Of a stretch of 64,000 bases of DNA, positions 16,505 to 62,115 are shown piece after piece; the stretch's first letter is position 1; each line of letters begins with the position of its first letter. The position numbers and the translations under genes are program-made. The notes beneath the pieces are model-generated. The model searched no databases. It worked only from the letters and a program-made list of their open reading frames with translations, and was not told the DNA's origin. This DNA is from an uncultured Planctomycetales bacterium (lineage in GTDB: Bacteria; Planctomycetota; Phycisphaerae; UBA1845; G020352895): assembly GCA_964571825.1 (NCBI GenBank), contig CAZNDQ010000001.1, positions 5,540 through 69,539 of the forward strand, in the 5' to 3' direction.

Positions 16505-16511
16505 ACGCCGC

Positions 16512-16528
16512 GCCGCATAGCACGACAC
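16512..16528 (-). promoter_or_regulatory. class II 17-mer GTGTCGTGCTATGCGGC
   Basis: 17/17 match. ATG of the methyltransferase (16504) lies 9 nt after TATGCG. Confidence 0.6.
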
Positions 16529-16529
16529 A

Positions 16530-17486: not shown

Positions 17487-17490
17487 GCGC

Positions 17491-17507
17491 GCCGCATAGC
17501 ACGACAC
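17491..17507 (-). promoter_or_regulatory. class II 17-mer GTGTCGTGCTATGCGGC
   Basis: 17/17 match. ATG at 17486 lies 6 nt after TATGCG, with no SD. Confidence 0.6.
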
Positions 17508-17508
17508 A

Positions 17509-27563: not shown

Positions 27564-27869
27564 TCAATCGAGCGGACAAGGTATTGACGGCAGCGATGGG
27601 AGCTGCGGGAATGGCGGGAGCCCAGGAATCGTCGGCAGCGCAGGGAACGGGATCGCGGGCAGTCCAGGCAGCGACGGCAACGCTGGGAGTGAAGGCAGCT
27701 GCGGAAATGGCGGCAGTCCCGGAATCGATGGCAGCGCAGGCAGCGCGATCGTTGGGATGCCCGGGAGCGCCGGCAGCGGCGGAAGTGAAGGCAACTGCGG
27801 GAATGGCGGCAGTCCCGGAATCGACGGCAGTACCGGGAACGGGATCGGCGGAAAGGCGCAGAGGGTCAC
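27564..27869 (-). CDS. proline-rich repeat protein (xPx triplets, 32-aa period)
   Basis: GTG start after a GAGGTG SD. Stop is 3 nt before the next start. The opposite strand is also open (see findings). Confidence 0.4.
   Translation of the reverse strand: MTLCAFPPIPFPVLPSIPGLPPFPQLPSLPPLPALPGIPTIALPALPSIPGLPPFPQLPSLPALPSLPGLPAIPFPALPTIPGLPPFPQLPSLPSIPCPLD
27601..27851. repeat. 96-nt tandem repeat, about 2.6 copies
   Basis: Copies at 27601..27696, 27697..27792 and 27793..27851. Confidence 0.85.
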
Positions 27870-27885
27870 GCCGCACCTCGCGATG

Positions 27886-35595: not shown

Positions 35596-35647
35596 TGCTT
35601 CCCTCCTCCGGTCTGTCGCGGTATTCGTGGCCCCGCGCGGCCGAAGG

Positions 35648-35720
35648 TCTGAGCGGCACGATTCGAACGTGCGACCCCGAGCACCCAAGGCTCGTGCGCT
35701 ACCAACTGCGCTACGCTCAG
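35648..35720 (-). tRNA. tRNA-Pro (anticodon UGG)
   Basis: Full cloverleaf read by hand: CTGAGCG-TA-GCGC-AGTTGGTA-GCGC-A-CGAGC-CTTGGGT-GCTCG-GGGTC-GCACG-TTCGAAT-CGTGC-CGCTCAG-A. Has C1:G72, G37 and A73. Confidence 0.9.
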
Positions 35721-36829: not shown

Positions 36830-38407
36830 CTAGTACGCCTGACCGGACTCCGCGATCACGGTGCCGGTCTTGATGAGGTGCTCGATCGTCTTCTTGTCCT
36901 GGAAGATGCTGAACGAGCCGCCGCCGTTGTAGACGCAGCTGAACTTCTCCAGCATCTCCTGCTTCGCACTCGGCTTCATGATCGGACCCGGATAAAGACC
37001 GTACGGCGAGTTGCTGCACATCTCATTGAGATGGTTCTCGTAGATCGCCACGATGTCGGCCGGCGTGGTCGTCAGCGCGGGCGGCAGCTGCCCTTCCGGC
37101 GGATCGTCGTCCGCGTTCGGCTGGAGCTTCGCAGTCATCGAACCGAAGAACAGCTCCCAGTTGCTGTGCAGACAGCGCGGGATGTGGCCCTCGCGGACCT
37201 TGTAGTCGTTGCTTCCGGCACTGTTCAGCGACTGGTTCGTGATGAAGCGCTTGATGCGCATCGCGCCCCTCTCGTACGTGATCGGGATAATCCCGTTGTC
37301 GAGCGCGGTTCGGATCTCCGTGTCCGTCGGCACGTCGGCCTCGAGACGCGGGCGCGGGATGTTGACCGCCAGTCCGTTGATGTTCGCCGCGGGGTAGGCG
37401 ATCTGGTGCTTGCGCGCCTGAGCCGCCATGTACGCGGCGATCCAGCCGCCGGGCCAGTCGTTGTTTTCCGCCCACGTGCAGTGCGCGGTCCACAGGTTCA
37501 TCTGGGCATCGGTCGACACCGTCACGGCTTCCGTGTTGGTGCCGGTGAGGCCGACAAACAGCAGCGTGTCGACGCCGTTGATCGGAAGCGCCAGGGTGCG
37601 CAGCGCTTCGGTCAACTCGCCAAGTCCGTTGTCGGTCGCAGTTGGGGCGCTCGTCGGGCTCTTCGGCGTGACGACGTAGTAGAAGAGATTCTCCTTGGCG
37701 CGCGCCGTCAGCGCAGCGATCGCCGCGGTGTGGTCGTCCTCGGTCGCACCGGCTACAGCGTCGGCGGTCTGCTTCTGCGCGACCTGCGTGTTGGTCGGCC
37801 CGATGAGCCGCACGCGCAAGCCGAGCGTCGCCGACGCGCCCTGGATGAGCGCGGTGCCGCGCGGACCGATGTTCGCCGCGGTCACCACCACGTCGAGCCC
37901 GGTCGTTGCCGCGGTCGGCGCAGCTGCGGTGAACGGACAGCGCCCGCCCTCGGCTGCGTTGATGGCCGACTGCACGCGCGCCGCGACGGTCGCCTCGCTC
38001 TCGTTGGCCTTGCGCGGCACTTCGATGGTTCCGTCTGCCCAGTCGATCGCGATGGTGCCCGGCTGATCCGACGTTCCCTGAATGTTGAGGACCGTGGCCG
38101 CAGCGGTGCCGCCCGACTCGGTGGGACAGAGCACGTAGATCGTGCCACTGGGATCCACTTTCCGAATCTGCCGGTACATCCACGCGGCTTCGCTGCGCGG
38201 ACCGAGGCGCGACTCAGCGTCGGCGTCGTCGGCGATCGGCGTGAGACTGATCGCGTCGACCGTCTCGGTACCGCCGCTCGTCTTGTTGCCGATGACGAGG
38301 TACGGCAAGGAGCTGACAGCGCCGGGTCCTCCGCCGCTGCCGGGACGGTACTCTCTCCGGTGTGCTGGAGACGGATCGGTGGGGTCTACCCCAAGCAGGC
38401 CAGCCAT
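36830..38407 (-). CDS. contractile tail sheath protein
   Basis: 525 aa, upstream of the tube gene in a Mu/P2-like order. Confidence 0.7.
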   Translation of the reverse strand: MAGLLGVDPTDPSPAHRREYRPGSGGGPGAVSSLPYLVIGNKTSGGTETVDAISLTPIADDADAESRLGPRSEAAWMYRQIRKVDPSGTIYVLCPTESGGTAAATVLNIQGTSDQPGTIAIDWADGTIEVPRKANESEATVAARVQSAINAAEGGRCPFTAAAPTAATTGLDVVVTAANIGPRGTALIQGASATLGLRVRLIGPTNTQVAQKQTADAVAGATEDDHTAAIAALTARAKENLFYYVVTPKSPTSAPTATDNGLGELTEALRTLALPINGVDTLLFVGLTGTNTEAVTVSTDAQMNLWTAHCTWAENNDWPGGWIAAYMAAQARKHQIAYPAANINGLAVNIPRPRLEADVPTDTEIRTALDNGIIPITYERGAMRIKRFITNQSLNSAGSNDYKVREGHIPRCLHSNWELFFGSMTAKLQPNADDDPPEGQLPPALTTTPADIVAIYENHLNEMCSNSPYGLYPGPIMKPSAKQEMLEKFSCVYNGGGSFSIFQDKKTIEHLIKTGTVIAESGQAY

Positions 38408-39324: not shown

Positions 39325-40085
39325 CAGTCTGCTCCGCCGTCAGGCGTTGGGCTCGGCGCATCGACGACGCGGTCAGTCCACAGCGCGTCGCTGCCGTCGT
39401 GCTTCACTGTCGCCCTGATGTCGCGCGTCAGCGCGTCCGCGCCGGCTTGTCCGATCAGCTCACGCACTGTCCAGCGCGCTTGCACAGCGGGGTATCCTCG
39501 CTGCACCGCACCGTCGCCGCCGCTGTTACGCGACGCGCTCAGCGGTCGCTGCCCCGGCTCGAGCTGCACGTGGCCGAACGACGAGCCGTCGTACTGCCAC
39601 CCCTCGATGCCGAGGCGGTTCGCGATCGTCTCGCCAACCGGCATCGTGCCGTAGCTGAACGTCTCGTGAAAGCCTAGCTTCGTTGCGCGCCCGAGCGTCG
39701 CGTCGACCAGGCTGTACAGCCCGTTCATCGTCTCGCTCGGGATGAGCTGCTCGGCGAAGATGTACAACGCGCGCAGCTGCGTCACGCGCTCGTCAACCAG
39801 CTGCGTGTACGGCCGCGTCACGATCGACTCGCGCCACATGTACAGCGCTGGCGGGTTGCGTCGCGCATGACCACGACCCGGATCGCACGCCACCGCGTTG
39901 CCTGACGGGACCGCCGCGTTGGGCTGTCCAGCGATGTTGGCCAGCCGCGTGTTGAGGTCGGCGTTGAGCCAGTGCGCGAAGTAGCTGAGCAGTCCGATGA
40001 CGAGCGGGTCATTGACCTGCGTGTCGGCATCGCCAGCAACCAGCGGCAGATCATGTGCGCCGACCGTGCTCGCAGTGGTCGGCAT
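39324..40085 (-). CDS. hypothetical protein
   Basis: Position only. Confidence 0.4.
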   Translation of the reverse strand: MPTTASTVGAHDLPLVAGDADTQVNDPLVIGLLSYFAHWLNADLNTRLANIAGQPNAAVPSGNAVACDPGRGHARRNPPALYMWRESIVTRPYTQLVDERVTQLRALYIFAEQLIPSETMNGLYSLVDATLGRATKLGFHETFSYGTMPVGETIANRLGIEGWQYDGSSFGHVQLEPGQRPLSASRNSGGDGAVQRGYPAVQARWTVRELIGQAGADALTRDIRATVKHDGSDALWTDRVVDAPSPTPDGGAD

Positions 40086-40088
40086 GGC

Positions 40089-40493
40089 TCAGCCCTCGGG
40101 GTTCGGTTGGCGACGGTTCAGCGCGCGCAGGACCAGCGTGCGACGGAACGGCCGCGACGTGTCGATCGCCTCGCCTGTGTAGTCGCCTTCGTTCGGTCCT
40201 TCGACCTGGTAGAACACCTCGGTCAGCGACGACTCGCTCGGGTTCAACTCGGCCGGCGTCATCATGATGTTCACCGGCGTGCACACCAGCGTACGCCCAC
40301 CGTCGCGCTCCTGCACGCGCGGGCGCGGCAAGATCTCAGTCCGCTCGTCGGTGTACGATCCAGTCCGGACCGCGCCTCCGTCATGGGTGCGCACCACAGC
40401 GAAGATGCGGTTCGTGCGCACGTCGAGCCCCGTGGGACCGGCGATCTGTTGGATCACCTGGTAGACGGGGCGGAACGATTCGCGGAACGTCAC
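40089..40493 (-). CDS. hypothetical protein
   Basis: GTG start, packed in the operon. Confidence 0.4.
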   Translation of the reverse strand: MTFRESFRPVYQVIQQIAGPTGLDVRTNRIFAVVRTHDGGAVRTGSYTDERTEILPRPRVQERDGGRTLVCTPVNIMMTPAELNPSESSLTEVFYQVEGPNEGDYTGEAIDTSRPFRRTLVLRALNRRQPNPEG

Positions 40494-40494
40494 G

Positions 40495-40671
40495 TCAGTT
40501 CGGCGCGTCGCATGGCGAGAGCATCGCCTTGAGGATCGCTTCGATCTGCGGCTCGTTGAGATCGCAGTCGCGGATCATGTCCACCACGGTGGCGCGCACC
40601 TCGTCAACGGTGCTGTCGGCGATGAGTGCCACGATGGGCAGGAGCGCTTCGATGCGTGCGGAGAGGGTCAT
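40495..40671 (-). CDS. possible 58-aa protein
   Basis: ATG after a GGAGA SD. High GC3. Fills the gap between flanking genes. Confidence 0.35.
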   Translation of the reverse strand: MTLSARIEALLPIVALIADSTVDEVRATVVDMIRDCDLNEPQIEAILKAMLSPCDAPN

Positions 40672-40675
40672 GGCG

Positions 40676-41830
40676 CTATCTCCTCAACTCCCACCTAACA
40701 GTGGCCGTGCTGCTCGCATTGGAGCTATTCAGTGTGAACCCGCTGGTTGCCTTGCTGGTAACCCAGAAGTTCTCATCGGCCTCGCCACCGAGCAGGACGC
40801 CATAGTTGGCATCGGGTTCCGTCGCCGCAAAGCTCACCGCCTTCGTGCTCGCGCCCGTGAACGTGGCGAGGCCACCAGGATTGAGCACGTTCACGATGGC
40901 TGGAGATGGTCCCGCAACGACGTTCACCGGAAGCGCCTGGTAGCCACCAGAATCGATGATGCAGGCGCCTACGGTGTTGTTGACTTCCAGCGCGATGTTC
41001 GGTGACGAGAGTGCCTGCCGGTTGTTGAGCCAGCAGAACCCAACGCACAGCTCCGCGTTGACGAGGCGTCTCGGGTCGCCCGACGCTTGCGTGATCCGGC
41101 AGCCTTGAACGGTGGTGTTGGTGCAGCGGTAGAACTTCAGCGACGGATCGGCAGCGGTATGTTCGACGTGGATCGCCTGAAGCGACAGCGCCTCGCACCA
41201 CTCGAACCGCGCTACGCCCTCGCCGGCAAGCCCGGTGCCACCGGTCCCCTGAATGAGCCCGCCTGCCCAGTTGAACGTCTGGGCGTAATACAGCAGGCAA
41301 TCGTTTTGCGTGTTCTGGTTCACGCGCAGGTTCGACGCGCGCGTCTGCTTTGCGCCGTCGTTGCTGTCGCCCTCGGTGCCAACCTGCAGCCCAATTAGGC
41401 AATTCTGAATGTGGACGTTGTTGATCGACGTGTCCTGCGCGTCGCCGTGCAGCCACAAGCCGGCACCGTCGGCGTCATTGACGATCCACAGGTTGCTCAG
41501 GTCACAGAAGTGCGCACCGTCCACCTCGATTCCGCCACCGTCGAGCTTGAAGTTGCGCAGGTAGTGCTGAATCCAATACGCGGCGCCGTCGTAGGATGGC
41601 TCGACGATGATCGCCGGACCGCTGCCGGTGTAGCGCAGCGTAGTCAGCGCGGGCCCCGACCCCTCGATGCCTCCAAGTGTTCCTGTCGAGATCGTCAACG
41701 GAGTGTCGAACTCGTGTGTCCCAGGCGGGAACACCAGCGGAGCACCGATAGCGAGGGCCGGTGACAGTGACAGTGCCGGATCGCCGGATCGAAAGATCAC
41801 GGCCGCCCTGTTGTCCGCCCGCCAACTCAT
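40676..41830 (-). CDS. right-handed β-helix (pectate-lyase-fold) protein, possible depolymerase
   Basis: Repeated N/C-containing turns (NNVHIQNC, GCRITQ, NNTVGACIID) typical of parallel β-helix repeats. Confidence 0.5.
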   Translation of the reverse strand: MSWRADNRAAVIFRSGDPALSLSPALAIGAPLVFPPGTHEFDTPLTISTGTLGGIEGSGPALTTLRYTGSGPAIIVEPSYDGAAYWIQHYLRNFKLDGGGIEVDGAHFCDLSNLWIVNDADGAGLWLHGDAQDTSINNVHIQNCLIGLQVGTEGDSNDGAKQTRASNLRVNQNTQNDCLLYYAQTFNWAGGLIQGTGGTGLAGEGVARFEWCEALSLQAIHVEHTAADPSLKFYRCTNTTVQGCRITQASGDPRRLVNAELCVGFCWLNNRQALSSPNIALEVNNTVGACIIDSGGYQALPVNVVAGPSPAIVNVLNPGGLATFTGASTKAVSFAATEPDANYGVLLGGEADENFWVTSKATSGFTLNSSNASSTATVRWELRR

Positions 41831-42618
41831 AAGCCGTATCGCTCAGTGGCGTACGACTCAAGCTGCTCGCACTGCGCGTCGCTTAGTCGTGAACTCCACA
41901 CCCCGCCCTCGGCGTATCCGATTGACGGTGGGTCTCCGCCGAGCGTCAGATTGCCCACGGTGAGCGACCCTAGGCTATCAGATGTAGTTGGCGTGTCGAG
42001 GTACGAATCCGCTGCCACCTCGGTGCCGTTGAGCCGCAGGCTGTAGCCCGTTGCGTCGGTGCGCGTGATGATGACGTGCTGCCCAACGCCCATGGCAGGT
42101 GCGCCGCCGCCAGACAGGTTGACGACGAATGATGTCCCGCTGCCGTTTCCGATCTGCCAGAGGAGAGCGCCCGACGTTCCCACACCAAGGTCGAACCCGA
42201 TGCGCGAGTTGAGTGAGCGCAGCGTGGAGAAGAACGCGCCGGCATCTGCTGCGTCCACATCAATCACATGAAACGTCGTGCAGTCGGTACCGTTGTGCAG
42301 CCGGTTGAACACACTCTTGGCGCCACCGAAAACGAGCGCGTGCGATGTGTCGGCGTTGGCGTAGGTGATGCTCGGCCGGTTGTTCAGGTCGGCGTTTTCT
42401 GCGTCGTACAGCGGCTGAGCGGACGCCGTCCCCTGCGCAACGTTGTTGCCGTTGCCACTCTGGTCGGCCCACGCGCTGACGTCCGTGCCGTTCAGCGTCA
42501 CCCCCATGTCGGCCCGCAGCCACAGCACCGCGCCGGCGATGTCCGTCGGCAGGAACGGCGCAATCGCACCCCGCCGCCTCCGCCCGCGGCGCAGAACCCA
42601 CTCAATGGCGCTGGACAT
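41827..42618 (-). CDS. LamG / concanavalin-A-like lectin-fold protein
   Basis: The WLRAD..DQSGNGNN..G....P pattern is typical of Laminin_G_3-type domains. Confidence 0.45.
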   Translation of the reverse strand: MSSAIEWVLRRGRRRRGAIAPFLPTDIAGAVLWLRADMGVTLNGTDVSAWADQSGNGNNVAQGTASAQPLYDAENADLNNRPSITYANADTSHALVFGGAKSVFNRLHNGTDCTTFHVIDVDAADAGAFFSTLRSLNSRIGFDLGVGTSGALLWQIGNGSGTSFVVNLSGGGAPAMGVGQHVIITRTDATGYSLRLNGTEVAADSYLDTPTTSDSLGSLTVGNLTLGGDPPSIGYAEGGVWSSRLSDAQCEQLESYATERYGL

Positions 42619-42627
42619 GTCGTTGCG

Positions 42628-43653
42628 TCAGCTTCGCGCCGGCATACCCAGCGCCGCGCACAACTCCGCCGTGACGGGGTCGTACACGCGCCGCATGCGC
42701 AGCGAGATGGCGATATCAGCGGCAAGCATGGGCAGGATGAGCAGCGGTTCGATGGCGGCGACACCGGCGGCAGCAATGCACCTCACGGCGAGGTCCGCGG
42801 CGACGATGAAACGAGCGTTGCGTACCGGGGCGAGGGCATGTGCTCCGATGAGGAGGGCCACGACCACAGCCTCGGCGCCCGTGGCAATGCCGGTGGGCAA
42901 CAGGAGGAACGGGAGAGGAGAGAGGAGCAGAAGGTCCGTCAAGAGACGGTGCGGAGCGCCGCGCTGGTGAGCGCGCGCGTAGGGATTGTCGTGGCCGCGC
43001 GACGATGCGCGCAGCACCCGCCACGCGAGGCGCGGACCGTACAGCAGCGCCAGGGACGCGACCCACACTGCGATGCCGATTGCGACGCCCAGGAGAGCCA
43101 CAGGCGCGCCGTAGAGACACGCGGCGGCAACGGCGGGCAGGGAGAACGCGGCGCCCTCCTTGAGGCTCAGCAGCGCGAAGACGAGGACCGCGACGCCGAG
43201 CAGCGAGCCGTGGAGCCCGGCACCAATGGCGAGCAGCGTCACGGCAGCGACGGGTCCGTCCTGCAGCGCGCGGCGCCCCACGATGTGGAGCAGCGGCGAG
43301 ACGAGACAGAGCGCCACGGCCGCGTATGCGATCGTGTACTCGGTGAGGATGTCAGCGAACGCATACGCGGCGGCGAGCGGCGCCATGAGCAGCGACAGCA
43401 GCGGCAAGGCGCGGTGCGATACGCGGCGGAACAGCGCGACCAGCAGCAGCCAGAGCCACCGCGTCGGTGCGGGGAAGCAGTGCAGGTCGGGGCGATCGAC
43501 GAACCGCTGCGCGAGGCGGCGGAGCGCGCCGATGCCCTCGGTGCGGGTCGCGTCGGCCTGTGCCGTGTAGACGATCTCGTCGTAGCCCGCGACGGGCGGC
43601 GGGTCGGCTGGGATGCGGCCGGAGACGGCGGCGTAGAGCTGGGCGGCGGTCAT
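42628..43653 (-). CDS. polytopic membrane protein (about 9-10 TM)
   Basis: Hydrophobicity pattern. Sits in the GT/methyltransferase cluster. Confidence 0.55.
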   Translation of the reverse strand: MTAAQLYAAVSGRIPADPPPVAGYDEIVYTAQADATRTEGIGALRRLAQRFVDRPDLHCFPAPTRWLWLLLVALFRRVSHRALPLLSLLMAPLAAAYAFADILTEYTIAYAAVALCLVSPLLHIVGRRALQDGPVAAVTLLAIGAGLHGSLLGVAVLVFALLSLKEGAAFSLPAVAAACLYGAPVALLGVAIGIAVWVASLALLYGPRLAWRVLRASSRGHDNPYARAHQRGAPHRLLTDLLLLSPLPFLLLPTGIATGAEAVVVALLIGAHALAPVRNARFIVAADLAVRCIAAAGVAAIEPLLILPMLAADIAISLRMRRVYDPVTAELCAALGMPARS

Positions 43654-43826
43654 TCGCCCACCGTGTCCGCAGCAAGCCGTGCGTCAAGCGCAGCAACGCG
43701 GCACCATGACGACAGGCTGGAATGCACCAGGTCGGATCGCAGGTGCGCGTCCGCGATTGCCATGGTTCCGATCGTGCTCAGCGCAAGCACAATCGAACCG
43801 AAGAACCACGAGTCGTTGAGTTCCAT
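43650..43826 (-). CDS. small single-TM protein
   Basis: ATG at 43826 lies 7 nt after the TATGCG of a class II motif. ATGA overlap downstream. Confidence 0.4.
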   Translation of the reverse strand: MELNDSWFFGSIVLALSTIGTMAIADAHLRSDLVHSSLSSWCRVAALDARLAADTVGE

Positions 43827-43831
43827 GCCGC

Positions 43832-43848
43832 GCCGCATAGCACGACAC
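43832..43848 (-). promoter_or_regulatory. class II 17-mer GTGTCGTGCTATGCGGC
   Basis: 17/17 match. Confidence 0.6.
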
Positions 43849-43861
43849 GGCAGCGCTGCAC

Positions 43862-44491
43862 CTAGCGCCGAAACACACCCAGCGTCATCGTCGCAGCGTT
43901 GGTCTTGTCGCCCTTGAGCCGACGTAGCGGTGGCGATTCGTCACGCCACCCTGCGTCACGCAGCAGTTTGCAGCACTCGCGCGGCACGTCGAAGTCGCGA
44001 TCGTCGAACACGAACAGCGATACGCGCGGCGACGCAATGACCTGCTCGGTGAAGCGGCGCTGCTCGTCGGCGTGGTCGCCGTCGTAGAACACCACGTCGT
44101 AGTCCAGCGGCGCGGCGAGCGTCTCACTGCGGTCGAACGCGACGGAAAGCTCCGGCGCGTCGAAGTACTTGAGGCGGTTGCGGTCGAAGTCGACCGGCTT
44201 CGCTGGGCGCCCTACCCACTGGTCCGCCACGTGGGCGTCGACCGTGTGGAGCCGCCAATTCTCCGGCGACTCACGCAGCGAATGCACGATGCCGCACGTC
44301 GACAAGCCGCGGTAGTGGCCCACCTCCAGGATGCGGTACTCGCTGCCGTAGCAGTCGCCGCCGCGGACCAGCGCCATCAGCAGGTCCAGCTCCGCGACGC
44401 TGAGTAGGCCACCCTGCGCGCCCCACACCTCTGCGCCGAGCGCTTTGATTTGCGCGGCGTTCATGGCCTGGGTGGCGTTGTGTCGCGGCAC
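43862..44491 (-). CDS. class I SAM-dependent methyltransferase
   Basis: ILEVGHYRGLST (motif I-like) and VFYDGDH (post-I acidic loop). Confidence 0.55.
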   Translation of the reverse strand: MPRHNATQAMNAAQIKALGAEVWGAQGGLLSVAELDLLMALVRGGDCYGSEYRILEVGHYRGLSTCGIVHSLRESPENWRLHTVDAHVADQWVGRPAKPVDFDRNRLKYFDAPELSVAFDRSETLAAPLDYDVVFYDGDHADEQRRFTEQVIASPRVSLFVFDDRDFDVPRECCKLLRDAGWRDESPPLRRLKGDKTNAATMTLGVFRR

Positions 44492-44525
44492 TCGTCAGCC
44501 CCGCGCGGCTGTATCGTCTGCGCAG

Positions 44526-44702
44526 TCAAAGTACGACCCACACCAGCAGCGCCGCGGTCAGCGCGTGCAGCACCGACCACGCCGCGAAGGGCCACGCGCC
44601 GTACACCGACGCGATGACGAGCCACACCAGCGATGCCGTCGCGTTGGCGAACAGGCCGGCAATGAGGATGGGTCGCGCGTCGGGTGGCGGGAGTGCGGTC
44701 AT
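44526..44702 (-). CDS. small 2-TM membrane protein
   Basis: ATG at 44702 lies 9 nt after the hexamer of a class II variant. Confidence 0.4.
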   Translation of the reverse strand: MTALPPPDARPILIAGLFANATASLVWLVIASVYGAWPFAAWSVLHALTAALLVWVVL

Positions 44703-44709
44703 TGTGTCA

Positions 44710-44726
44710 GCCACATAGCACGACGC
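44710..44726 (-). promoter_or_regulatory. class II variant GCGTCGTGCTATGTGGC (15/17)
   Basis: Two substitutions, same orientation and context. Confidence 0.5.
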
Positions 44727-44760
44727 ATATGGCCACCATTCCGCTGCAACCGTGGCCGAA

Positions 44761-46194
44761 TCACGCCGCAAGCGCATCCGCCTGCTCGCGCTGCGCTTTC
44801 GCCTCGGCGATGTCCTCGCGCAGCCGCTTGGCGTTTTCGTCGAACCGCGCCCACTCGCTCCGCGGCAGCCGCGGCGTCGCGCGCAGCTGCTCGATGTAGT
44901 GCAGCGCTTCCTCTTGGCGACCGAGCCGCGCGAGCGCCCCGATCAGCTCATCGAAGGCACGCCACTGATACACCGGCTCGTGCACCATCAGTGCGTCTTG
45001 CGGCATCTGCATCTGTGCCGCGCGGCGCGCGAACAACTCGGCCAGCGCATAGTCGCCCGAGTCGTTGCAGATGACCGCGCATGCCCACAGCGGCTCGGCG
45101 CGTCGCGGGCGCATCTGGTACGCCTCGAGGTAGTTGCACAGCGCAGCGCGCCGGTCCGCGTCGGTCCGATTCGCGCGCTTGCCGTCCTTCTCGCCGGTCT
45201 CGCCGCCGCTCGCCTTGTAGTCGAACAGCGCGGCGCGCATCCACGCGGCGTAGTACCGCTCTTCTGGCCAGCCACCGAGCGACACGCGCTTGTCGAACGC
45301 GTCGATCGCCTCGTCGATGCACAACGCACCGGCGAGCGCCTGGCCGAGGTAGTACCAATGACGCGGGTTGTTCGGCTCGCGCTCCACCATGCCGCGCAGC
45401 ACCTCGGCGTCGCGGAGGTACTTGTCGCGGCCCTGGTCGTTGCGGTGCGAGTCGTTGTGGCTCAGCACCTCCAGCGGCAGACACGGCGGGGGCAGCAGTG
45501 GCATGCCCTTGGGTAGCGTCAATACCTCGTGTAGCTCGTACACGTAGTGCCAAGGCAACGCGGCGCGCACCAGCACGCGGCGTACCCAGACGCCGTCGTG
45601 GTCCGTCATGCGCAGGCGGATCGAGTACGCGTCCGCGGTGAGCGGTTGCGGGTCGCCTGGATTGGCCACGTCTTCGCAACCGACGTGGCCAAAAGTGACG
45701 CCGTCCGGTCCGGTCAGTTCCTCGTCAGCGTCGATGACGAACAGGTAGCCGGTGGCGTCACCTCCGTCGCGGGCCAGAACCTCGCGACCCAGATCGAGCG
45801 ACTGGTTTCGGTTGGTGGAGAAGTCGACCCACTCCCGTTCGATCAACTCGCCGGGCATGTCAGCCATCATCTCGCGGACGATGTCCTGCGTGCCGTCGGT
45901 GCTGCCCGTGTCCACGATCGCCCAGTGCGTCACGTGCGGGCGCACGGTGCGGAGGCATCGTTCGATGACCTTCGCCTCGTTGCGGACGATCATGCAGAGG
46001 CATACCGGCGTGCGTGGCGAGTCCGCGTGCGGTTGCTGACCGTTGCTGTCAGCTGGTGAGCGCGAAACGTTACCGTTGGTGTAACTTTGCGCGCGTCGGG
46101 CAACCGCGTGCTCGGGCAGGATGTACCCGTGCGCGATGAGCCAGAAGCGCAGCCACGCGACGAGGCGCGACCAGGCGCGGATGATTCGGTCCAT
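44761..46194 (-). CDS. GT2-family glycosyltransferase with C-terminal TPR-like repeats (paralogue A)
   Basis: CLCMIVRNEAKVIERCL..IVDTGSTDGT..DADE motifs. C-terminal WYYLGQALAG-type helical repeats. ATG after GGGAGGG. Confidence 0.75.
   Translation of the reverse strand: MDRIIRAWSRLVAWLRFWLIAHGYILPEHAVARRAQSYTNGNVSRSPADSNGQQPHADSPRTPVCLCMIVRNEAKVIERCLRTVRPHVTHWAIVDTGSTDGTQDIVREMMADMPGELIEREWVDFSTNRNQSLDLGREVLARDGGDATGYLFVIDADEELTGPDGVTFGHVGCEDVANPGDPQPLTADAYSIRLRMTDHDGVWVRRVLVRAALPWHYVYELHEVLTLPKGMPLLPPPCLPLEVLSHNDSHRNDQGRDKYLRDAEVLRGMVEREPNNPRHWYYLGQALAGALCIDEAIDAFDKRVSLGGWPEERYYAAWMRAALFDYKASGGETGEKDGKRANRTDADRRAALCNYLEAYQMRPRRAEPLWACAVICNDSGDYALAELFARRAAQMQMPQDALMVHEPVYQWRAFDELIGALARLGRQEEALHYIEQLRATPRLPRSEWARFDENAKRLREDIAEAKAQREQADALAA
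45847..45936. repeat. 90-bp segment identical to 51112..51201
   Basis: Base-by-base identity read directly. Encodes VTHWAIVDTGSTDGTQDIVREMMADMPGEL. Confidence 0.9.
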
Positions 46195-46321
46195 CACTGC
46201 CCTCCCAGGCGATGGTGAGATGTGTCCCGCCGCGCTAGCTAGGCGCATTGGCTTTCGGCGACCCGTGGCTACCCATTGAGTCGCTCATGCGGGCCGGACC
46301 AGCCCGGGTAGTTGTGTTGCG

Positions 46322-46642
46322 CTACGTCGCCGGGTTTCCGCCGCCGACCTGCCAGCCGCGCAGCGTGGCGATCACTTCCATGCCGGTCGCGCTCGCCTCC
46401 AGCCGGATGTGGCTGATCGCTTCGGGGATCTCGACGCACGTCGCAGCGGCAAGGCTGATCGCCGTGCCGTGGTCGATGTACGTCGTACCGTCTGCGCTGA
46501 TCTCGACGTCGAGCGTGCCGCTGTTGAATGTGCCGGTCAGCGTGAGCCACTTGTCGGCCATGTCGCCGCAGAACATTGCGGTACCGTCAGCCGGCGTCGC
46601 CGGGCACGCCAAGCGGCGGAAGATGTAGCCTCGATCGCTCAT
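46322..46642 (-). CDS. hypothetical head-module protein
   Basis: Position only. Confidence 0.4.
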   Translation of the reverse strand: MSDRGYIFRRLACPATPADGTAMFCGDMADKWLTLTGTFNSGTLDVEISADGTTYIDHGTAISLAAATCVEIPEAISHIRLEASATGMEVIATLRGWQVGGGNPAT

Positions 46643-46654
46643 TGTGCCTCGCTG

Positions 46655-47290
46655 TCAATACAGCGCGATTGCGCCGCCGCCCATTCCGCCGCCGGCCTGT
46701 CGGCCGAGCCACCATTCGTAGATCCCGCAGAGCTTTGCGAGTTCACCGCGCCAGTACTGCCGCGCGTCGACCAGCTGCGCGAAACGCGTCTGCGACGATG
46801 CGCTGCTGCCGGCCGGGTAGAACTCGATCTCATCGACGCGCTTCAGCCCGGCGCCCTGTACACCGCTGCCGCCCCCGCCAAGCTCGTCGGCGATGAGTTG
46901 CAGTTGGCGGAGCGCATTGCGCACGTGCGACTCGCCAGCTTCGACCACAACGGGGTACGTGCCGCTGTGCGCCTTCTGCAGCAACACGGTCAGCGACGTG
47001 CCGCTGATGCTCTGCACGCTGCAAAGCTCCTGGCGTGCATCGACGTCTACAACGACGCGGTCAAACGCCGCGAAGCCCGTACCTGACGCGAGCGTCAGCG
47101 TGACGGGCGTCGGTGCCGACGCTGCGGTGACAGCGGTGCTCGACGTGGTCGATGCGCCCGCCGTCATGTACTGCTGAATCACCGACGTGAAAACGGAATG
47201 CACGCCAATGAATGGCTCGGCACCCACCTCCAGCAGATTCACGCCAAGCTCGGCGCGGATGCGAAGAACCTCGCTATCAGTGAGACTCAT
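46655..47290 (-). CDS. hypothetical head-module protein
   Basis: Position only. Confidence 0.4.
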   Translation of the reverse strand: MSLTDSEVLRIRAELGVNLLEVGAEPFIGVHSVFTSVIQQYMTAGASTTSSTAVTAASAPTPVTLTLASGTGFAAFDRVVVDVDARQELCSVQSISGTSLTVLLQKAHSGTYPVVVEAGESHVRNALRQLQLIADELGGGGSGVQGAGLKRVDEIEFYPAGSSASSQTRFAQLVDARQYWRGELAKLCGIYEWWLGRQAGGGMGGGAIALY

Positions 47291-47846: not shown

Positions 47847-48932
47847 CTAGGCCGAGCTGCGAACGCTCAGCACGAAGCTGTTGTCGGCGAGGCCGAACGC
47901 GTGATCGGCGAGCCAGATCACCTTCGCGGTTTCGCCGTAGTTGTCGTCGGTCGACGCGGCGACGCGCGGCGCGCGACCCATGCCGGCGAGCAGCGCTCCG
48001 GGGGCGATCAGGTGACCGCGGTGCACGTTCACCGAGGAGCTGTTCGCCGGAGCGTTCAGCGTGGTCGCCTTGAACACGTGCATCTTGCTGATGCTGCCCA
48101 CGTAGGACGGGAACACGGCGTTGTACTGCGGATGCGCCTTGCCCCACTCGATGCCGTCCGAGTCGCCCTTGAGCTGACGCAGCTGCGTCGGGCTGAGCAC
48201 GAGCATGCGGAAGCCGTCGCCGAGCGTCGGCAGGTTCGCGTCGTCGGCCTGTTGCTCCGCTCTGAAGATCTGCTCCAGCGTCAGCGGGAACGATCCGACC
48301 GTGGTCGCATCGTTGTCAGCGCTCATGCCATCGGGGTAGACGGTGGTCGACGCGAGGTCGAGCAGCGCCACGTTCACGATGTCGAGGAACCGATCGTAGT
48401 CACGCCGCAGCTGGCTGCCGACGATCTTGCTTGCCTTGTGCACACCCATGTTGGCGTCGAACGCCTCGATTCCCATCGGGGCGACGCGGCTGTTCGCGCT
48501 GTCGTACGGGCCACCGTAGCGGAACAGCGTGAGGCTGGTCTGCTGCGCGGTCGGCTCGATCGCCGTGGTGCTGATCGAGGTGCCCGTCGCAATGCGGCGC
48601 GCGCTCTCGGTCGCCGTGGTGTTCTCGTATACCGGGCGATTGATGCGCACCGTGTTGCCGGGCGCCGCGTTGAAGTCGACCGTCGCGGCGATGATCTCGC
48701 TCGACAGCGGGCCGCTCAGCATCAGGCGATCCTGCTCGGCCGCGGCGTAGTCAGCGCCGACGCCGCCGACGCTGCGACCGGGGAGGCCCAGCTCCTCGGG
48801 GGTGTCGAGCGACGCCATCAGTGCCGACTTGAACAGCTGCGCGTAGAGGTACTGCGGCTCGGGCGCCGCAAGCAGCATGTCGCTGGTCTTGTCGTAGAAG
48901 CCCTCGGGCATCGAAACGCGGGAGTAAGACAT
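47847..48932 (-). CDS. major capsid protein
   Basis: 361 aa, after the scaffold-like gene. AAGGA SD. Size and position typical of HK97-fold MCPs. Confidence 0.65.
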   Translation of the reverse strand: MSYSRVSMPEGFYDKTSDMLLAAPEPQYLYAQLFKSALMASLDTPEELGLPGRSVGGVGADYAAAEQDRLMLSGPLSSEIIAATVDFNAAPGNTVRINRPVYENTTATESARRIATGTSISTTAIEPTAQQTSLTLFRYGGPYDSANSRVAPMGIEAFDANMGVHKASKIVGSQLRRDYDRFLDIVNVALLDLASTTVYPDGMSADNDATTVGSFPLTLEQIFRAEQQADDANLPTLGDGFRMLVLSPTQLRQLKGDSDGIEWGKAHPQYNAVFPSYVGSISKMHVFKATTLNAPANSSSVNVHRGHLIAPGALLAGMGRAPRVAASTDDNYGETAKVIWLADHAFGLADNSFVLSVRSSA

Positions 48933-49896: not shown

Positions 49897-50154
49897 CTAC
49901 GCGTCGGTCACGATCGCCATCACGCTCCACTTGTCGACGAACGTGCGGTATGGCTGAAAGCTCATCTCTGCCTTGGCCCGCTCCTCCTCGGGAAGGCACC
50001 ACTCACTGACAAGCACGGCGTCGCCGCGCTTTACGCCCTTTGCTTCTGGCCCAACGGCGAGCACCTCAGCAAGCAGCCCACCCGGCGAGTCTTCGCGGAT
50101 CTTGTTCTCCACGATCTCGACATCGACGTGGCTGCCCATTGGCTTCGTCTTCAT
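49897..50154 (-). CDS. GroES/Cpn10-like protein
   Basis: KPMGSHVDVEIVE..GGLL..AEVLAVGPEAKGVKRGDAVLV..VMAIVTDA is co-linear with the GroES pattern, with a short mobile loop. Confidence 0.5.
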   Translation of the reverse strand: MKTKPMGSHVDVEIVENKIREDSPGGLLAEVLAVGPEAKGVKRGDAVLVSEWCLPEEERAKAEMSFQPYRTFVDKWSVMAIVTDA

Positions 50155-50160
50155 TGGTCC

Positions 50161-51297
50161 CTATGCAGCGGCTCGCGCCGCGTCGTTCTGTGCCGCCAGC
50201 CCACGCATGTATGCGAGGTTGTCCGCCATGCGCTGGCGATGCTCTGCGGGAATGCTTGGGTGCGTGGCGAGCGGTGCGTAGATACGCAGCGCCTCGTCAA
50301 TGCGCCCGAGGTTCGTCAGCGCGCCGCACAGTTCCTCGGCGGCGCGGTAGTGGTAGACGCTGCCGTACACAGGCAACGAGTCGGTGGGTCGCCTCAGTCG
50401 ACACGCAGCGCGTGCCCACACCTCGGCGAGGGCGTGTCGCCCTGCGTTGGCGTGCAGCACCGCAATGGCCCAGCACGGCTCGGCTCGCGTCGGGCGGGCC
50501 TCATAGGCGCGCTCGTAGGCGGCAATGACCTCGGCGTCGTCGCGGCCGAGAAACTCCAACAGGCGCGCCGTCTCGTAGTGCGAGTGGAAGACCTCTTCGT
50601 CGAAGCCGCCCTCCATCTGCACGCGCCGCGCAAACGCATGCAGCGCCGCGTCGTACTGCTGCGCGCCGGCAAGCGCCTGCGCGAGGTAGTACCAGTGTCG
50701 CGGGTTGTGCGGGTCGTCGGCGATCTCAGCACGCAACAACTCGGCGTAGCGCGCACACTTCGCCTTATCGTCCTCCGACGAGTGACCGTCGGCGTGGTTG
50801 CGCAGCCGGAAGCCCTCGACGATGCGGTGCGGACCGTCCTGTCCCGGGCACGCCACGACCTCGTGGATGCGACCGACGTAGCGCCACGGAAGGTCCAGCC
50901 TGATCAGCGTCAGCCGATACCAGCGTTGATCTTCCATCTCCAGCGGGATGGCGTACGCCGCCTCGGTCAGCTCAGGCAGCGTTGCGCCGTCGTCTGCCTC
51001 CAGCACCTCGTCGGCGTCGATGCACAGCGCGTAGTCGGCGCCCATGTCGCGCGCCATCGTCAGCGCGCGGTTGCGTGCCGAGCTGAAGTCGCGAAACTCC
51101 ACCTCGGCAAGCTCGCCGGGCATGTCAGCCATCATCTCGCGGACGATGTCCTGCGTGCCGTCGGTGCTGCCCGTGTCCACGATCGCCCAGTGCGTCACGT
51201 GTGGCAGCACCGAATCGAGACAGCGCGCAATGACACGCGCCTCGTTGCGCACGATGAGACACGCGCAGACGCGCGGTGACGTGTTCCCTCCCGTCAC
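50161..51297 (-). CDS. GT2-family glycosyltransferase with C-terminal TPR-like repeats (paralogue B)
   Basis: CACLIVRNEARVIARCL..IVDTGSTDGT..DADE. WYYLAQALAG repeats. Confidence 0.75.
   Translation of the reverse strand: MTGGNTSPRVCACLIVRNEARVIARCLDSVLPHVTHWAIVDTGSTDGTQDIVREMMADMPGELAEVEFRDFSSARNRALTMARDMGADYALCIDADEVLEADDGATLPELTEAAYAIPLEMEDQRWYRLTLIRLDLPWRYVGRIHEVVACPGQDGPHRIVEGFRLRNHADGHSSEDDKAKCARYAELLRAEIADDPHNPRHWYYLAQALAGAQQYDAALHAFARRVQMEGGFDEEVFHSHYETARLLEFLGRDDAEVIAAYERAYEARPTRAEPCWAIAVLHANAGRHALAEVWARAACRLRRPTDSLPVYGSVYHYRAAEELCGALTNLGRIDEALRIYAPLATHPSIPAEHRQRMADNLAYMRGLAAQNDAARAAA
51112..51201. repeat. 90-bp segment identical to 45847..45936
   Basis: Direct repeat, same orientation, 5.26 kb apart. 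Confidence 0.9.
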
Positions 51298-54780: not shown

Positions 54781-56121
54781 CTACATGTCGGCGATGACGG
54801 TCTTGGTTGCGATGGGTGCGTTGGCGGCGCGTAACGCCATGGCCAGCGCCCAGAATGAATCAGCGTGTCCCTCGCTGGTCCGCGGCGCCTCATACGAGAC
54901 GTTGCCGGCCTGCGTGACGACGCGCTTGATGGAGCACACGTCGCGGAACAGCTGCTCGTTGTCGCGAGGCATTCGGATCATGTCCGACGCGAACAGCGAG
55001 TGCGCGCGCGTCGCCATGTCCTCTTTGCTCTGCAGGGTGAAGCTCACGGGCTCGACGCTCATCTCGCCGTACGCCGCTTGCGCCTCGGAGGCAGGGAACG
55101 CACCCAACCCGGTCGCGTCGATGCACATGCGCTCCACACCGAACGGCGGCGCGAAGGCGCGCGCCACGAGCATCTGAATGTCGCCGAGCTGCGTGCGCTT
55201 GCAGGTGGCAGTGTGGACCACGTGGTAGCGCCCGTCGTGGTTGCGTCGCACGATGGCCAGCTCTGTCCGATCAACCTCTTTGCCGATGTCGAGCCCAGCC
55301 CAGCACGGTCCGTGCGGGATGTACGTCGAATCGATGCGGGCCGCTTCGACCAGGTGCGTCGGGATGTACTGCTGCTCGTTGTCTAGGAATGAGCAGCAGA
55401 ACAGCTGGTTGAAGACGCGCTCGTCGCCGCGCGCCAGCCTCCAGCAGTCGGCGATGTCGACTGGCATGCCATCGGCGATGGCGTCGTCCAGCGTTACGGC
55501 GTGGCGCGAGTACCCTTCGTTCTGCTTCGGGTCACTCCACAGCTCGTAGAACAGACCCGCCGCGCCGTTGGGCGTCGACAACCCGCGGATGCGGTAGCCG
55601 TGCAGCGCGGTGCCCGCCGCGCCGTCCCACACCTCGTAGGGCCGGTCGTAGTACGCCAGCTCGTCCAGGATGACGTTGCCGCTAAACGAGCGGCCCGCCG
55701 ACGTGTTGGGCAGCGACAGAATGCGCCCGCCATCGCCGCGGCCGTTGCCGCGCATGATGAGCTTGGTCGCACTGTTGTGCAGCGGGACGGCCCATCGCGA
55801 GCCAAGCTCGGCGAGCGCCGATGCGTGCAGCTTCGACTTGGCGAGGACCTCGTCGGCCTCGCGCTGCCCCAGCGAGATGACGGTCGTCGTCTCGCCGAAC
55901 AGCCCCCACAGCACCGCGGCACCCGCGATGGTGTGGCTGATCCCGATCTGTCGCGACTTGAGCGCGAGCATGAACCGCGACCAATCGAGTATCCACTCGA
56001 GCTGGAAGCGGTAGAACGTGTGCAGCCACGCGTCTACCGCGGCGAACTCACGCGACGGTAGCGCCTCGCGCAATCCGTCGTAGGTCCGCTGGGCGTCAGC
56101 GCTGAGAGTCGGCAGCGCCAT
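54781..56121 (-). CDS. terL: terminase large subunit
   Basis: Walker A-like KSRQIGIS and Walker B-like VILDELA, followed by a nuclease-half pattern. Position fits. Confidence 0.8.
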   Translation of the reverse strand: MALPTLSADAQRTYDGLREALPSREFAAVDAWLHTFYRFQLEWILDWSRFMLALKSRQIGISHTIAGAAVLWGLFGETTTVISLGQREADEVLAKSKLHASALAELGSRWAVPLHNSATKLIMRGNGRGDGGRILSLPNTSAGRSFSGNVILDELAYYDRPYEVWDGAAGTALHGYRIRGLSTPNGAAGLFYELWSDPKQNEGYSRHAVTLDDAIADGMPVDIADCWRLARGDERVFNQLFCCSFLDNEQQYIPTHLVEAARIDSTYIPHGPCWAGLDIGKEVDRTELAIVRRNHDGRYHVVHTATCKRTQLGDIQMLVARAFAPPFGVERMCIDATGLGAFPASEAQAAYGEMSVEPVSFTLQSKEDMATRAHSLFASDMIRMPRDNEQLFRDVCSIKRVVTQAGNVSYEAPRTSEGHADSFWALAMALRAANAPIATKTVIADM

Positions 56122-59672: not shown

Positions 59673-59796
59673 GGTCAACGGCGGGATTCGAACCCGCGAC
59701 CTCCCTCGTGCAAAGAGATAACCGTTCCGCTGCGGCCCGAATCGGGCAAAGAGGTGCGAGACGGAATAGGCGCTCTACCAGCTGAGCTACGTTGAC
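59673..59796 (-). ncRNA. tRNA-like RNA with a Y-RNA-type hairpin in place of the anticodon arm (module 3)
   Basis: Perfect acceptor (GTCAACG/CGTTGAC), D arm (GCTC-AGCTGGTA-GAGC) and T arm (GCGGG-TTCGAAT-CCCGC). A 68-nt insert carries CTTTGCCCG-ATT-CGGGCCGCAG..GGTTATC. Confidence 0.65.
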
Positions 59797-59843
59797 CGGT
59801 GTTCCCGGCTTGAATTGCACCAGCGTTACCGGCGTGAAAGGCG

Positions 59844-59894
59844 ATAACCCTCATGCTTCGGCCCGCGGACGGGCAAAGTGTTGCCGAGGGGTAT
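59844..59894 (-). ncRNA. Y-RNA-like module 2 (Ro-helix motif closed by a tetraloop)
   Basis: ATACCCCTC..CTTT-GCCCG-TCCG-CGGGC-C-GAAG..GAGGGTTAT folds as one long hairpin with a bulged C. Confidence 0.5.
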
Positions 59895-59929
59895 TGAACG
59901 GTGTCCTGCTCACTAGACGACGGGAACAG

Positions 59930-59992
59930 ATGTCGGGCAAGTTGGTGCGGCAGGGGAACATACCAGATAACCCTACCACTTCGGCCCGACAT
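59930..59992 (-). ncRNA. Y-RNA-like module 1 (compact, canonical topology)
   Basis: Termini pair as ATGTCGGGC/GCCCGACAT, with bulged C/G, AAGT/ACTT, GGTAGGG/CCCTGCC and loop TTATCTGGTATGTTC. The 5' end coincides with the predicted TSS. Confidence 0.65.
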
Positions 59993-59997
59993 GGAAA

Positions 59998-60015
59998 CTC
60001 TATAGCACACCACAC
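59998..60015 (-). promoter_or_regulatory. class II-related promoter of the Y-RNA cluster (GTGTGGTGTGCTATAGAG)
   Basis: TGC-TATAGA extended -10. 6 nt to the A that starts the Y-RNA terminal helix. Confidence 0.55.
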
Positions 60016-60035
60016 GCGTCGCAGTATTGGCAGCC

Positions 60036-61787: not shown

Positions 61788-61794
61788 GACTTGG

Positions 61795-61811
61795 TCCTCA
61801 TAGCACGACAC
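61795..61811 (-). promoter_or_regulatory. class II variant GTGTCGTGCTATGAGGA (13/17)
   Basis: First 13 nt identical. The 3' end reads GAGGA (SD-like). ATG at 61787. Confidence 0.55.
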
Positions 61812-61812
61812 A

Positions 61813-62115
61813 TCACGGATACTCGCTGGCCAACTCGGACGCGCACTGGCGACAGACCACGCGCTGCGGTGGAGTTGGCTGCGGCAGGATGGCCCGCAGC
61901 GCAGCGGCGACGCCGGCTGCAAATGCTTCGCACTCCTCGTTGGTCGGACGAGCACTGAGTGCCTCGCTCGCGATGCGTCGCTTGACGATGTCGACCACCA
62001 CACACCACTCGCTTTCATCTGTGAAGTCCAGGCGGGATCGCTTTCCTTCAAGTCGTTTCCACCAGCCGCGAAGCAGATCGTGATCGCCAATCGGTTGCCA
62101 GTTAACCTTGCTCAT
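61813..62115 (-). CDS. hypothetical protein
   Basis: ATG at 62115 (MSKVNWQPIG), overlapping the upstream stop by 14 nt. Confidence 0.4.
   Translation of the reverse strand: MSKVNWQPIGDHDLLRGWWKRLEGKRSRLDFTDESEWCVVVDIVKRRIASEALSARPTNEECEAFAAGVAAALRAILPQPTPPQRVVCRQCASELASEYP

Follow-up and report, generated by a model that had tools for sequence, protein, structure and literature searches.

The usual logic of envelope-modifying systems such as ArnC/ArnT and Gtr is the pairing of a GT2 glycosyltransferase with a polytopic protein of the GT-C class (PMC11127046, PMC6801728). In phages, such GT2 and GT-C pairs are known as seroconversion cassettes. Virion glycosylation by phage-encoded enzymes is described as well, and the passage of PMC11600133 that cites Freeman et al. 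2023 lists an O-methyltransferase and three glycosyltransferases among the virion glycosylation genes of cluster O mycobacteriophages. Here we analysed a stretch of 64,000 nt (the window; contig CAZNDQ010000001.1 of assembly GCA_964571825.1, positions 5,540 to 69,539 of the forward strand) from an uncultured Planctomycetales bacterium, in which a cluster of glycan-related and membrane genes encodes a distinct unit. The unit consists of a GT2 glycosyltransferase carrying a TPR domain (GT2-TPR), a methyltransferase and a GT-C-fold protein without the first transmembrane (TM) helix, TM1, and these three enzymes together constitute a recurrent phage unit that is mobile among phages.

The window is a phage genome segment of 67% GC, and the following genes, along with those for tape-measure and baseplate proteins, identify the phage as a temperate myovirus.

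3015-4046: integrase, matching phrog_1 at 1.5e-46
36830-38407: tail sheath protein
47847-48932: capsid protein
54781-56121: terminase

Neither megablast with positions 40000-47000 nor tblastn with the capsid protein gave a match among 50,697 deposited phage genomes, and the phage therefore has no close cultured relative among them. We compared the window with 14 related uncultivated viral contigs having capsid identities of 40-67%, to which later searches added several more loci; one locus was retrieved by a metagenome scan. The gene order common to these relatives is scaffold, capsid, g137, g211, the neck genes g134 and g253, and sheath. In L019 (2782-3601) and L030 (8817-9653), the capsid gene is followed by a tandem duplication of g137, which possibly encodes a decoration protein.

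A preliminary description of the window, made from its sequence alone, had proposed that seven glycan-related and membrane genes are inserted between the head and tail modules. This placement is correct, because g211 and g134 are adjacent in relatives (g134 follows g211 within 0.6 kb in L011 and L014, at 72 nt in the latter, with no cluster gene between them) and lie 6.1 kb apart in the window. The window-specific insertion spans 40495-46642 (6.1 kb) and is bordered upstream by conserved head-completion genes (the capsid gene and g137/g211) and downstream by neck and sheath genes (g134/g253 and the sheath gene). All seven genes were recovered as open reading frames (ORFs) on the minus strand at the positions first reported, and the gene-by-gene calls proved essentially right; two orphan ORFs complete the insertion, which reads in transcription order as follows (aa, amino acids; GC3, GC content at third codon positions).

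46322..46642, minus strand: orphan ORF of 106 aa, first gene of the insertion; GC3 0.88, weak DUF6385 match (E 0.02)
44761..46248, minus strand: GT2-TPR glycosyltransferase; likely start 46194, giving 477 aa
44526..44702, minus strand: orphan 58-aa peptide with two TM segments (hydrophobic residues 11-33 and 38-58); GC3 0.86
43862..44491, minus strand: class I S-adenosylmethionine-dependent methyltransferase, probably of the Methyltransf_24 family; Pfam 23.6 bits, cut-off 26.3
43650..43826, minus strand: orphan 58-aa peptide with a single N-terminal hydrophobic TM segment
42628..43653, minus strand: membrane protein of 341 aa, predicted GT-C-fold glycosyltransferase homologue (PMT_2/ArnT-like) without TM1
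41827..42618, minus strand: protein with a probable LamG/ConA-like lectin fold, of the virion-fibre-associated type; GC3 0.79
40676..41830, minus strand: tailspike-like protein of 384 aa with a probable right-handed β-helix and a conserved C-terminal domain
40495..40671, minus strand: orphan ORF of 58 aa, last gene of the insertion; GC3 0.86

The intergenic gaps of the cluster measure -4 to 73 nt, its last three genes are coupled, and its GC3 of 0.71-0.87 is typical for coding sequence in a 67% GC genome. The orphan ORFs at either end (46322-46642 and 40495-40671) have no homologue in any related locus. The whole of 40495-46642 is a composite, window-specific insertion in the late structural operon of this temperate myovirus.

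The enzyme genes of the insertion recur as a set in the relatives. GT2-TPR stands immediately upstream of the GT-C gene in all 11 IMG/VR loci that carry the latter and also in L016, and in at least seven distinct sequences (48-77% mutual identity) the two form a single in-frame ORF. The possibility that these fusions are artefacts of gene calling or recoding was considered and rejected, as P0014 is in frame on its contig and the seven diverged fusions keep both frame and motif. Further arrangements were found in P0055, from an unrelated E217-like myovirus, where TM1, the GT-C domain and a C-terminal GT2-TPR form one protein, and in P0085, where a GT-C protein with a C-terminal Methyltransf_24 fusion is followed by a GT2 gene. 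The genes for GT2-TPR, methyltransferase and GT-C protein of L030 have overlapping stops and starts and directly precede the scaffold and capsid genes, and the methyltransferase gene of L022 follows g211, which is the site of the insertion in the window. The patchy distribution of the unit on the capsid tree indicates that it was gained or lost several times. It is unrepresented among the deposited phage genomes searched, yet it turns up repeatedly in uncultivated phages from soil and water and also in the second, unrelated myovirus lineage. The small peptides, the LamG-like protein and the β-helix protein never accompany it in related loci. In L039, a Tad2-like (anti-Thoeris) gene at 6968-7198 lies two genes downstream of a GT-C::methyltransferase fusion and GT2 pair, and by its proximity the unit there sits among accessory or counter-defence genes and not among structural ones.

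The 341-aa protein, first described as having roughly ten TM segments, is polytopic with about 10-11 helices in an AlphaFold model built with an alignment of 90 sequences (predicted local distance difference test, pLDDT, 94.7; predicted template modelling score, pTM, 0.92). The 13 best Foldseek matches of this model in the PDB are all GT-C proteins (including ALG9, ALG12, ArnT, ALG3, STT3, Pmt4 and EmbA/B) at a probability of about 1, so that structure prediction relates the protein to glycosyltransferases and not to an unrelated function. A search with the single sequence recovered three relatives only; a three-sequence profile, made of the window protein plus two homologues, extends to PMT_2 proteins such as P0006 and P0070, and an exhaustive hidden Markov model search outlined a GT-C family of 425 representatives at E <= 1e-3. 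The window protein does not match Pfam PMT_2 (PF13231), whereas homologues reached by the profile pass (P0006 52.5, P0070 53.9 and P0101 46.1 bits); P0006, named ArnT-like by its source, has PF13231 at 8e-14. No homologue was detected by tblastn among the deposited phage genomes, and neither a profile search of genome contigs with the GT-C alignment nor a search of PDB sequences with the 90-sequence profile returned any match. D25, R65, G232, P246 and R281 are invariant among the 90 aligned sequences, and E26 (in at least 90% of them), D132, K165, E166, R236, D240, D287, R291 and a YDPxT tail are nearly so. The acidic motif at D25-E26, G-x-DE-xx-Y, which lies in the loop ahead of the second TM helix of the GT-C plan, resembles the catalytic Asp-Glu (DE) motif of ArnT and PMT. 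On the modelled structure, the protein is a GT-C-fold glycosyltransferase homologue of the PMT_2/ArnT type.

The GT2-TPR protein belongs to the GT2 family with the GT-A fold, as shown by its match to Pfam Glycos_transf_2 (32.4 bits against a cut-off of 23.3; 1e-7) and by the DxD-type sequence VIDADEE in its translation, and it matches TPR models and phrog_13126 (1e-25) as well. Its start is favoured at ATG 46194, since a Shine-Dalgarno-like GGGAGGG lies 5 nt 5' of this codon. It has an N-terminal extension of about 57-75 aa that is missing in its paralogue and in most relatives. The closest sequences of solved structure are GmaR (4e-8) and SunS (1.6e-7), aligned over about 75 residues of the catalytic domain only. 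The NCBIfam model for SunS (TIGR04195) gives 37.4 and 39.7 bits against a cut-off of 350, and hence the protein is not an equivalog of SunS and shares with it the architecture only. The GtrB-type family phrog_841 matches residues 82-132 alone (about 50 aa, E 0.022). No TM segment was seen in the hydropathy profile of GT2-TPR, the C-terminus of which is a TPR domain instead.

A second copy of this gene lies elsewhere in the window.

50161..51297, minus strand: GT2-TPR paralogue of 378 aa, 45% identical to the first copy

It occupies the site upstream of the scaffold gene where relatives carry GT2-TPR and GT-C, and has no GT-C gene beside it. The two copies share a perfectly identical patch of 90 bp (45847-45936 and 51112-51201) despite their protein identity of 45%, which suggests recent gene conversion between them. 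At the position of the relatives' GT-C gene lies an ORF of 85 aa (49897-50154, minus strand) that looks GroES-like by eye; its sole Pfam match is a weak one to ADH_N ("alcohol dehydrogenase GroES-like domain", E 0.028), and weak homologues are found upstream of the scaffold gene in L001 and L004, which lack the module.

The methyltransferase falls below the Pfam cut-off by itself, and its orthologues in L030 and L022 (59-61% identity) exceed it with 28.5 and 26.7 bits; its own sequence shows the motifs LEVGHYRG and FYDGDH. Its true start may be ATG 44464, as the orthologues align from residue 10. The two 58-aa peptides have no family in Pfam, PHROG or NCBIfam and no homologue in related loci, and a PADLOC search of the cluster proteins for defence systems gave no match. 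The stop of the 1-TM peptide overlaps the start of the GT-C gene by 4 nt (ATGA). We considered that this peptide might be the split-off TM1 of the GT-C protein, and dropped the idea because the sequences are not similar and the distance to the DE motif does not fit (56 aa as against 10-15 aa).

The fusions of GT2-TPR and GT-C bear on how the GT-C protein sits in the membrane. In canonical GT-C enzymes the first TM helix sets the acidic loop outside the cytoplasm (PMC6801728). The window protein lacks this helix, as do 47 of the 90 aligned members, namely the phage-type ones. In the seven fusions, 10-15 polar residues separate the TPR domain from the GPDExxY motif behind it, with no hydrophobic segment in the 120 aa scanned upstream of the motif, and at the C-terminus of GT-C proteins both GT2-TPR (P0055) and methyltransferase (P0085) are also found fused. 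Both of these enzymes require cytoplasmic co-substrates. Moreover, the loops that hold nearly all conserved polar residues have about 11 lysines and arginines (K/R) and the opposite loops about 0.8, where the mapping of the family's helices onto ArnT is our own assumption. Given the loss of TM1, the fusions of cytoplasmic enzymes at both termini and the K/R bias, the conserved DE-motif and Arg-rich face of the protein appears to be cytoplasmic, opposite to that of canonical GT-C enzymes, an orientation we regard as somewhat more probable than its converse.

The same observations bear on a canonical route of the Gtr/Arn type, in which GT2-TPR would make a polyprenyl-phosphate sugar, a small TM peptide or a host protein would flip it, and the GT-C protein would transfer it in the periplasm to O-antigen, lipopolysaccharide or a surface protein. 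Such a route would suit the pairing of GT2 with a GT-C fold, the DE motif like that of ArnT and PMT, the small TM proteins of the cluster and the temperate nature of the phage, and it follows the established logic of these systems (PMC11127046). It is nevertheless distinctly unlikely here. The helix that places the acidic loop extracytoplasmically in canonical enzymes is the very one lost in 47 of the 90 members; the seven diverged fusions leave no TM segment between GT2-TPR and the DE motif; fusions to GT2-TPR and methyltransferase at the GT-C C-terminus are equally at odds with it; the supposed cytoplasmic loops would hold only about 0.8 K/R; and the small peptides match no GtrA or flippase family and are absent from all relatives that bear the trio.

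The last two of the seven genes differ from the enzymes in their affinities. The LamG-like protein matches phrog_10356 "virion structural protein" at 1e-14 and has no direct Pfam match, and its homologues approach or exceed the Laminin_G_3 cut-off of 27.6 (28.7 bits in L036, 20.1 bits in L034); L034 has two tandem LamG copies after a tail-fibre gene. The β-helix protein matches over residues 320-383 the C-terminus of the tailspike of cyanophage Pam1 (7eea) at 1.8e-8. It has homologues with pectate-lyase-like or Beta_helix domains, among them P0162 with Pect-lyase_RHGA_epim at 5.7e-14, and has no relatives in IMG/VR. Its AlphaFold model is weak (pLDDT 61) with an all-β repeat pattern, and Foldseek matches to this model are mostly phage tailspikes and depolymerases (E 1.6e-6 to 1e-3, at low TM-scores). 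The preliminary description had suggested a virion depolymerase or receptor-binding role for the two proteins, and the resemblance to fibre and tailspike proteins bears this out in part; an N-terminal virion-anchor domain, however, was not detected in the β-helix protein, where only about 30 residues precede the β-helix.

The two genes are absent from every relative and have a lower GC3 (0.78-0.79 against 0.85-0.87), and to judge from these features they are a separate acquisition from the enzyme unit. The pair is best read as an extra receptor-binding/depolymerase pair of putative virion proteins. Since the enzyme trio travels in relatives without them, a "mixed module", which the preliminary description had left as one option, is the one favoured. 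It is very improbable that the cluster is instead a single pathway with LamG and β-helix proteins acting as glycan-processing enzymes of lyase or epimerase type on the polysaccharide of the glycosyltransferase unit. The tight packing and common orientation of the genes with coupling of the last three, the matches of the β-helix model to mannuronan C-5 epimerases and glucanases as well, and the lack of an anchor domain would agree with such a pathway. It is opposed by the want of an evident signal peptide on either protein, by the fact that neither is ever found beside the trio in relatives, by their best affinities being fibre and tailspike proteins, and by the difference of their GC3 from that of the enzyme trio.

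The cluster also contains two copies of a motif that the preliminary description had called class II promoters giving the small membrane genes leaderless starts.

44710..44726 (core 44714-44724), minus strand: variant copy GCGTCGTGCTATGTGGC, 12 nt before the ATG of the 2-TM peptide
43832..43848 (core 43836-43846), minus strand: copy GTGTCGTGCTATGCGGC, 10 nt before the ATG of the 1-TM peptide
13725, 13811 (plus strand), 16516, 17495, 19407, 21321, 59578 and 61799: the eight other copies of GTCGTGCTATG

The motif is real and highly non-random, as GTCGTGCTATG occurs 10 times in the window against 0.03 expected, whereas its promoter function and the leaderless starts are presumed. The two copies occupy the only two sizeable intergenic gaps of the cluster, and an ATG follows the CTAT by 9-13 nt at nine of the ten copies, the exception being the plus-strand copy at 13811. 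The motif was not found in any related phage locus, and no sigma-70-like promoter was found in the cluster. The copies outside the cluster precede accessory genes, including those of two DNA methyltransferases (15197-16573 and 16530-17531) and, for the copy at 61799, the Ro60 gene.

Taken together, we read the cluster tentatively, with a confidence slightly short of an even balance, as a mixed module of a host-envelope modification unit and an extra receptor-binding/depolymerase pair, where we infer the acceptor, the orientation, the timing of expression and the association with virions. Soluble GT2-TPR would use a nucleotide sugar in the cytoplasm while docked on the GT-C-fold protein, and the methyltransferase would O-methylate the sugar. 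The most likely acceptor would be a component of the host envelope that is still on the cytoplasmic side of the membrane, either a polyprenyl-linked glycan precursor or a protein in export, and the infected or lysogenic cell would show an altered surface, leading to receptor masking or lysogenic conversion. The two orphan membrane peptides would have been inserted between the enzyme genes, each with a copy of the promoter-like motif, through which transcription of the genes behind them may be uncoupled from that of the late operon. We favour the host envelope because the phage is temperate, the unit has an obligatory GT-C partner that is polytopic, internal promoter-like elements were gained, and a tailspike-like gene is the neighbour. 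In P22, gtrABC adjoins the tailspike gene. As far as is known, the substrates of characterised GT-C enzymes are without exception glycoconjugates of the envelope or secreted ones.

Several observations weigh against this reading. The nearest characterised kin of GT2-TPR, GmaR and SunS, are protein or peptide glycosyltransferases and not polyprenyl-phosphate glycosyltransferases, and jumbo phage Tunturi_5 encodes a GT2-TPR near tail-fibre genes without any GT-C. The unit of the relatives lies inside the head operon, next to scaffold and capsid genes and lacking a separate promoter, and P0055 is encoded directly after the capsid gene of its E217-like phage; such placements suit a late virion-related role better than lysogenic conversion. 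The cytoplasmic orientation, to which the fusions and charge bias point, contradicts every characterised GT-C, and in cellular homologues the charges flanking TM1 give no clear direction (19 vs 19). A moron, an accessory gene with autonomous expression in a late operon, would have both a promoter and a terminator for itself; the cluster has the promoter-like motif twice, and no terminator-like site was found on its coding strand. Also, the profile search of genome contigs with the capsid alignment reached three contigs of metagenome-assembled genomes only, of inconsistent taxonomy.

Many of these points would be accommodated by virion glycosylation, in which GT2-TPR would bind capsid, decoration or fibre proteins through its TPR domain and glycosylate them in the cytoplasm, the methyltransferase would cap the sugar, and the GT-C protein would extend the glycan from a lipid-linked donor or tether the enzyme at the membrane. 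At least 10 related loci have the unit directly beside scaffold or capsid genes, the unrelated E217-like phage has it after the capsid gene, and in relatives its translation is coupled to that of the head operon. GmaR and SunS as nearest solved relatives and the GT-C-free setting in Tunturi_5 agree with a protein acceptor, and both termini of the GT-C protein and its DE motif appear to lie in the cytoplasm, where virions assemble. A precedent for combining methyltransferase and glycosyltransferase in phages comes from the cluster O mycobacteriophages, as far as the cited passage describes them (PMC11600133). Even so, we consider virion glycosylation unlikely, if the most serious of the alternatives. 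No known system of this kind needs a polytopic membrane protein, and this lineage has a GT-C partner that is either obligatory or fused; capsids do not assemble at a membrane; the unit of L039 stands among accessory genes; and none of the capsid or decoration features correlates convincingly with the presence of the module. The only feature of capsid, decoration or scaffold proteins that surfaced was an N-N-[S/T] sequon at the capsid C-terminus, present in seven of the ten module-bearing members (L005, L016, L022, L023, L025, L029 and L030) and in none of the 13 module-less ones. We rejected it as evidence because it is confined to a single clade and is absent from the window; in L003, the sole module-less member of that clade, it is broken. 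The preliminary description had held that lysogenic conversion and virion glycosylation cannot be told apart from sequence, and the present analysis bears this out.

A broader proposal spans both outcomes. The proteins may form an upside-down GT-C family, in which a cytoplasmic DE site would be coupled to GT2-TPR and methyltransferase, and through which phages would modify either cytoplasm-made capsid and decoration proteins or unflipped lipid-linked envelope precursors; we regard it as plausible, with rather more doubt than belief. If the cytoplasmic orientation is true, GT-C enzymes are not confined to the extracytoplasmic face, which would be a categorically new mode for this fold and a new coupling of nucleotide-sugar and membrane-bound glycosyl transfer. 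The unit would either rewrite the host surface, with receptor masking or change of serotype, or decorate virions, with effects on stability and immune recognition, and both outcomes bear on the prediction of phage host range and on phage therapy.

Other features of the window lie outside the cluster. A tRNA-Pro gene (anticodon TGG; 35646-35720, minus strand) is located within the tail module, and a homologue of HslV-family peptidases (10926-11699, minus strand; phrog_1040 at 7e-14) in the early/accessory region. Three tandem repeats of 96 nt (27589-27876) are found near the baseplate/fibre region, and three of 48 nt at 16952-17095. The Ro60/TROVE and vWA gene (60036-62090, minus strand; Pfam 2.4e-60) is followed downstream by a match to the Y-RNA-like sbRNA of Rfam (RF01656, 59930-59993) and a tRNA-like element of 124 nt (59673-59796), and the region 59673-62090 on the minus strand looks like a phage-borne Rsr/Y-RNA module.

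The described system closest to the putative virion pair is that of the phage tailspike depolymerases (Pam1, Sf6, LKA1 gp49 and K1 lyase). Like them, and as far as a low-confidence model allows comparison, the β-helix protein has a probable β-helix body, and its C-terminal domain is homologous to the one in the Pam1 tailspike. It differs in having only 384 aa without an N-terminal particle-binding domain and in its genomic position apart from the baseplate and fibre genes. Among the enzymes, SunS (SPβ yolJ) and GmaR have, like GT2-TPR, an N-terminal GT-A domain followed by C-terminal TPR-like repeats; SunS glycosylates a peptide and GmaR flagellin, and neither has a membrane partner, unlike the GT2-TPR of the window. 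Cluster O mycobacteriophages likewise encode a methyltransferase together with glycosyltransferases, but in other hosts and from other enzyme families, and the present unit is known from its genes alone. We know of no membrane GT-C partner in those systems.

The comparison with GtrA/GtrB/GtrC and ArnC/ArnE-F/ArnT is the most instructive. A GT2 enzyme and a polytopic protein of known or predicted GT-C fold of the PMT_2/ArnT type are common to all of them, and here they are borne by a temperate phage. The likeness of the cluster to GtrABC cassettes, which had been pointed out at first, is nonetheless an analogy only. GtrABC has GtrA with about 120 aa and four TM segments, whereas the small proteins of the window have 58 aa with two and one TM segments, and a flippase of the GtrA or ArnE-F type is absent from the cluster. 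GtrB is a GT2 enzyme with C-terminal TM helices; the GT2 of the window is not GtrB-like, having a TPR domain, no TM segment and its closest affinities with SunS and GmaR. GtrC is a polytopic protein of the GT-C class, and its possible counterpart here has the predicted GT-C fold and is PMT_2-like, lacks TM1, seemingly faces the cytoplasm and is often fused behind GT2-TPR in relatives. GtrABC cassettes lie beside attP and the integrase gene, while the unit of these phages belongs to the head operon and is about 38 kb from the integrase in the window. The methyltransferase is an integral third member, in distinction to the Gtr and Arn systems. The unit is thus not a member of GtrABC, and its combination of the GT2 and GT-C theme with a TPR domain, a methyltransferase and a TM1-less GT-C protein is new.

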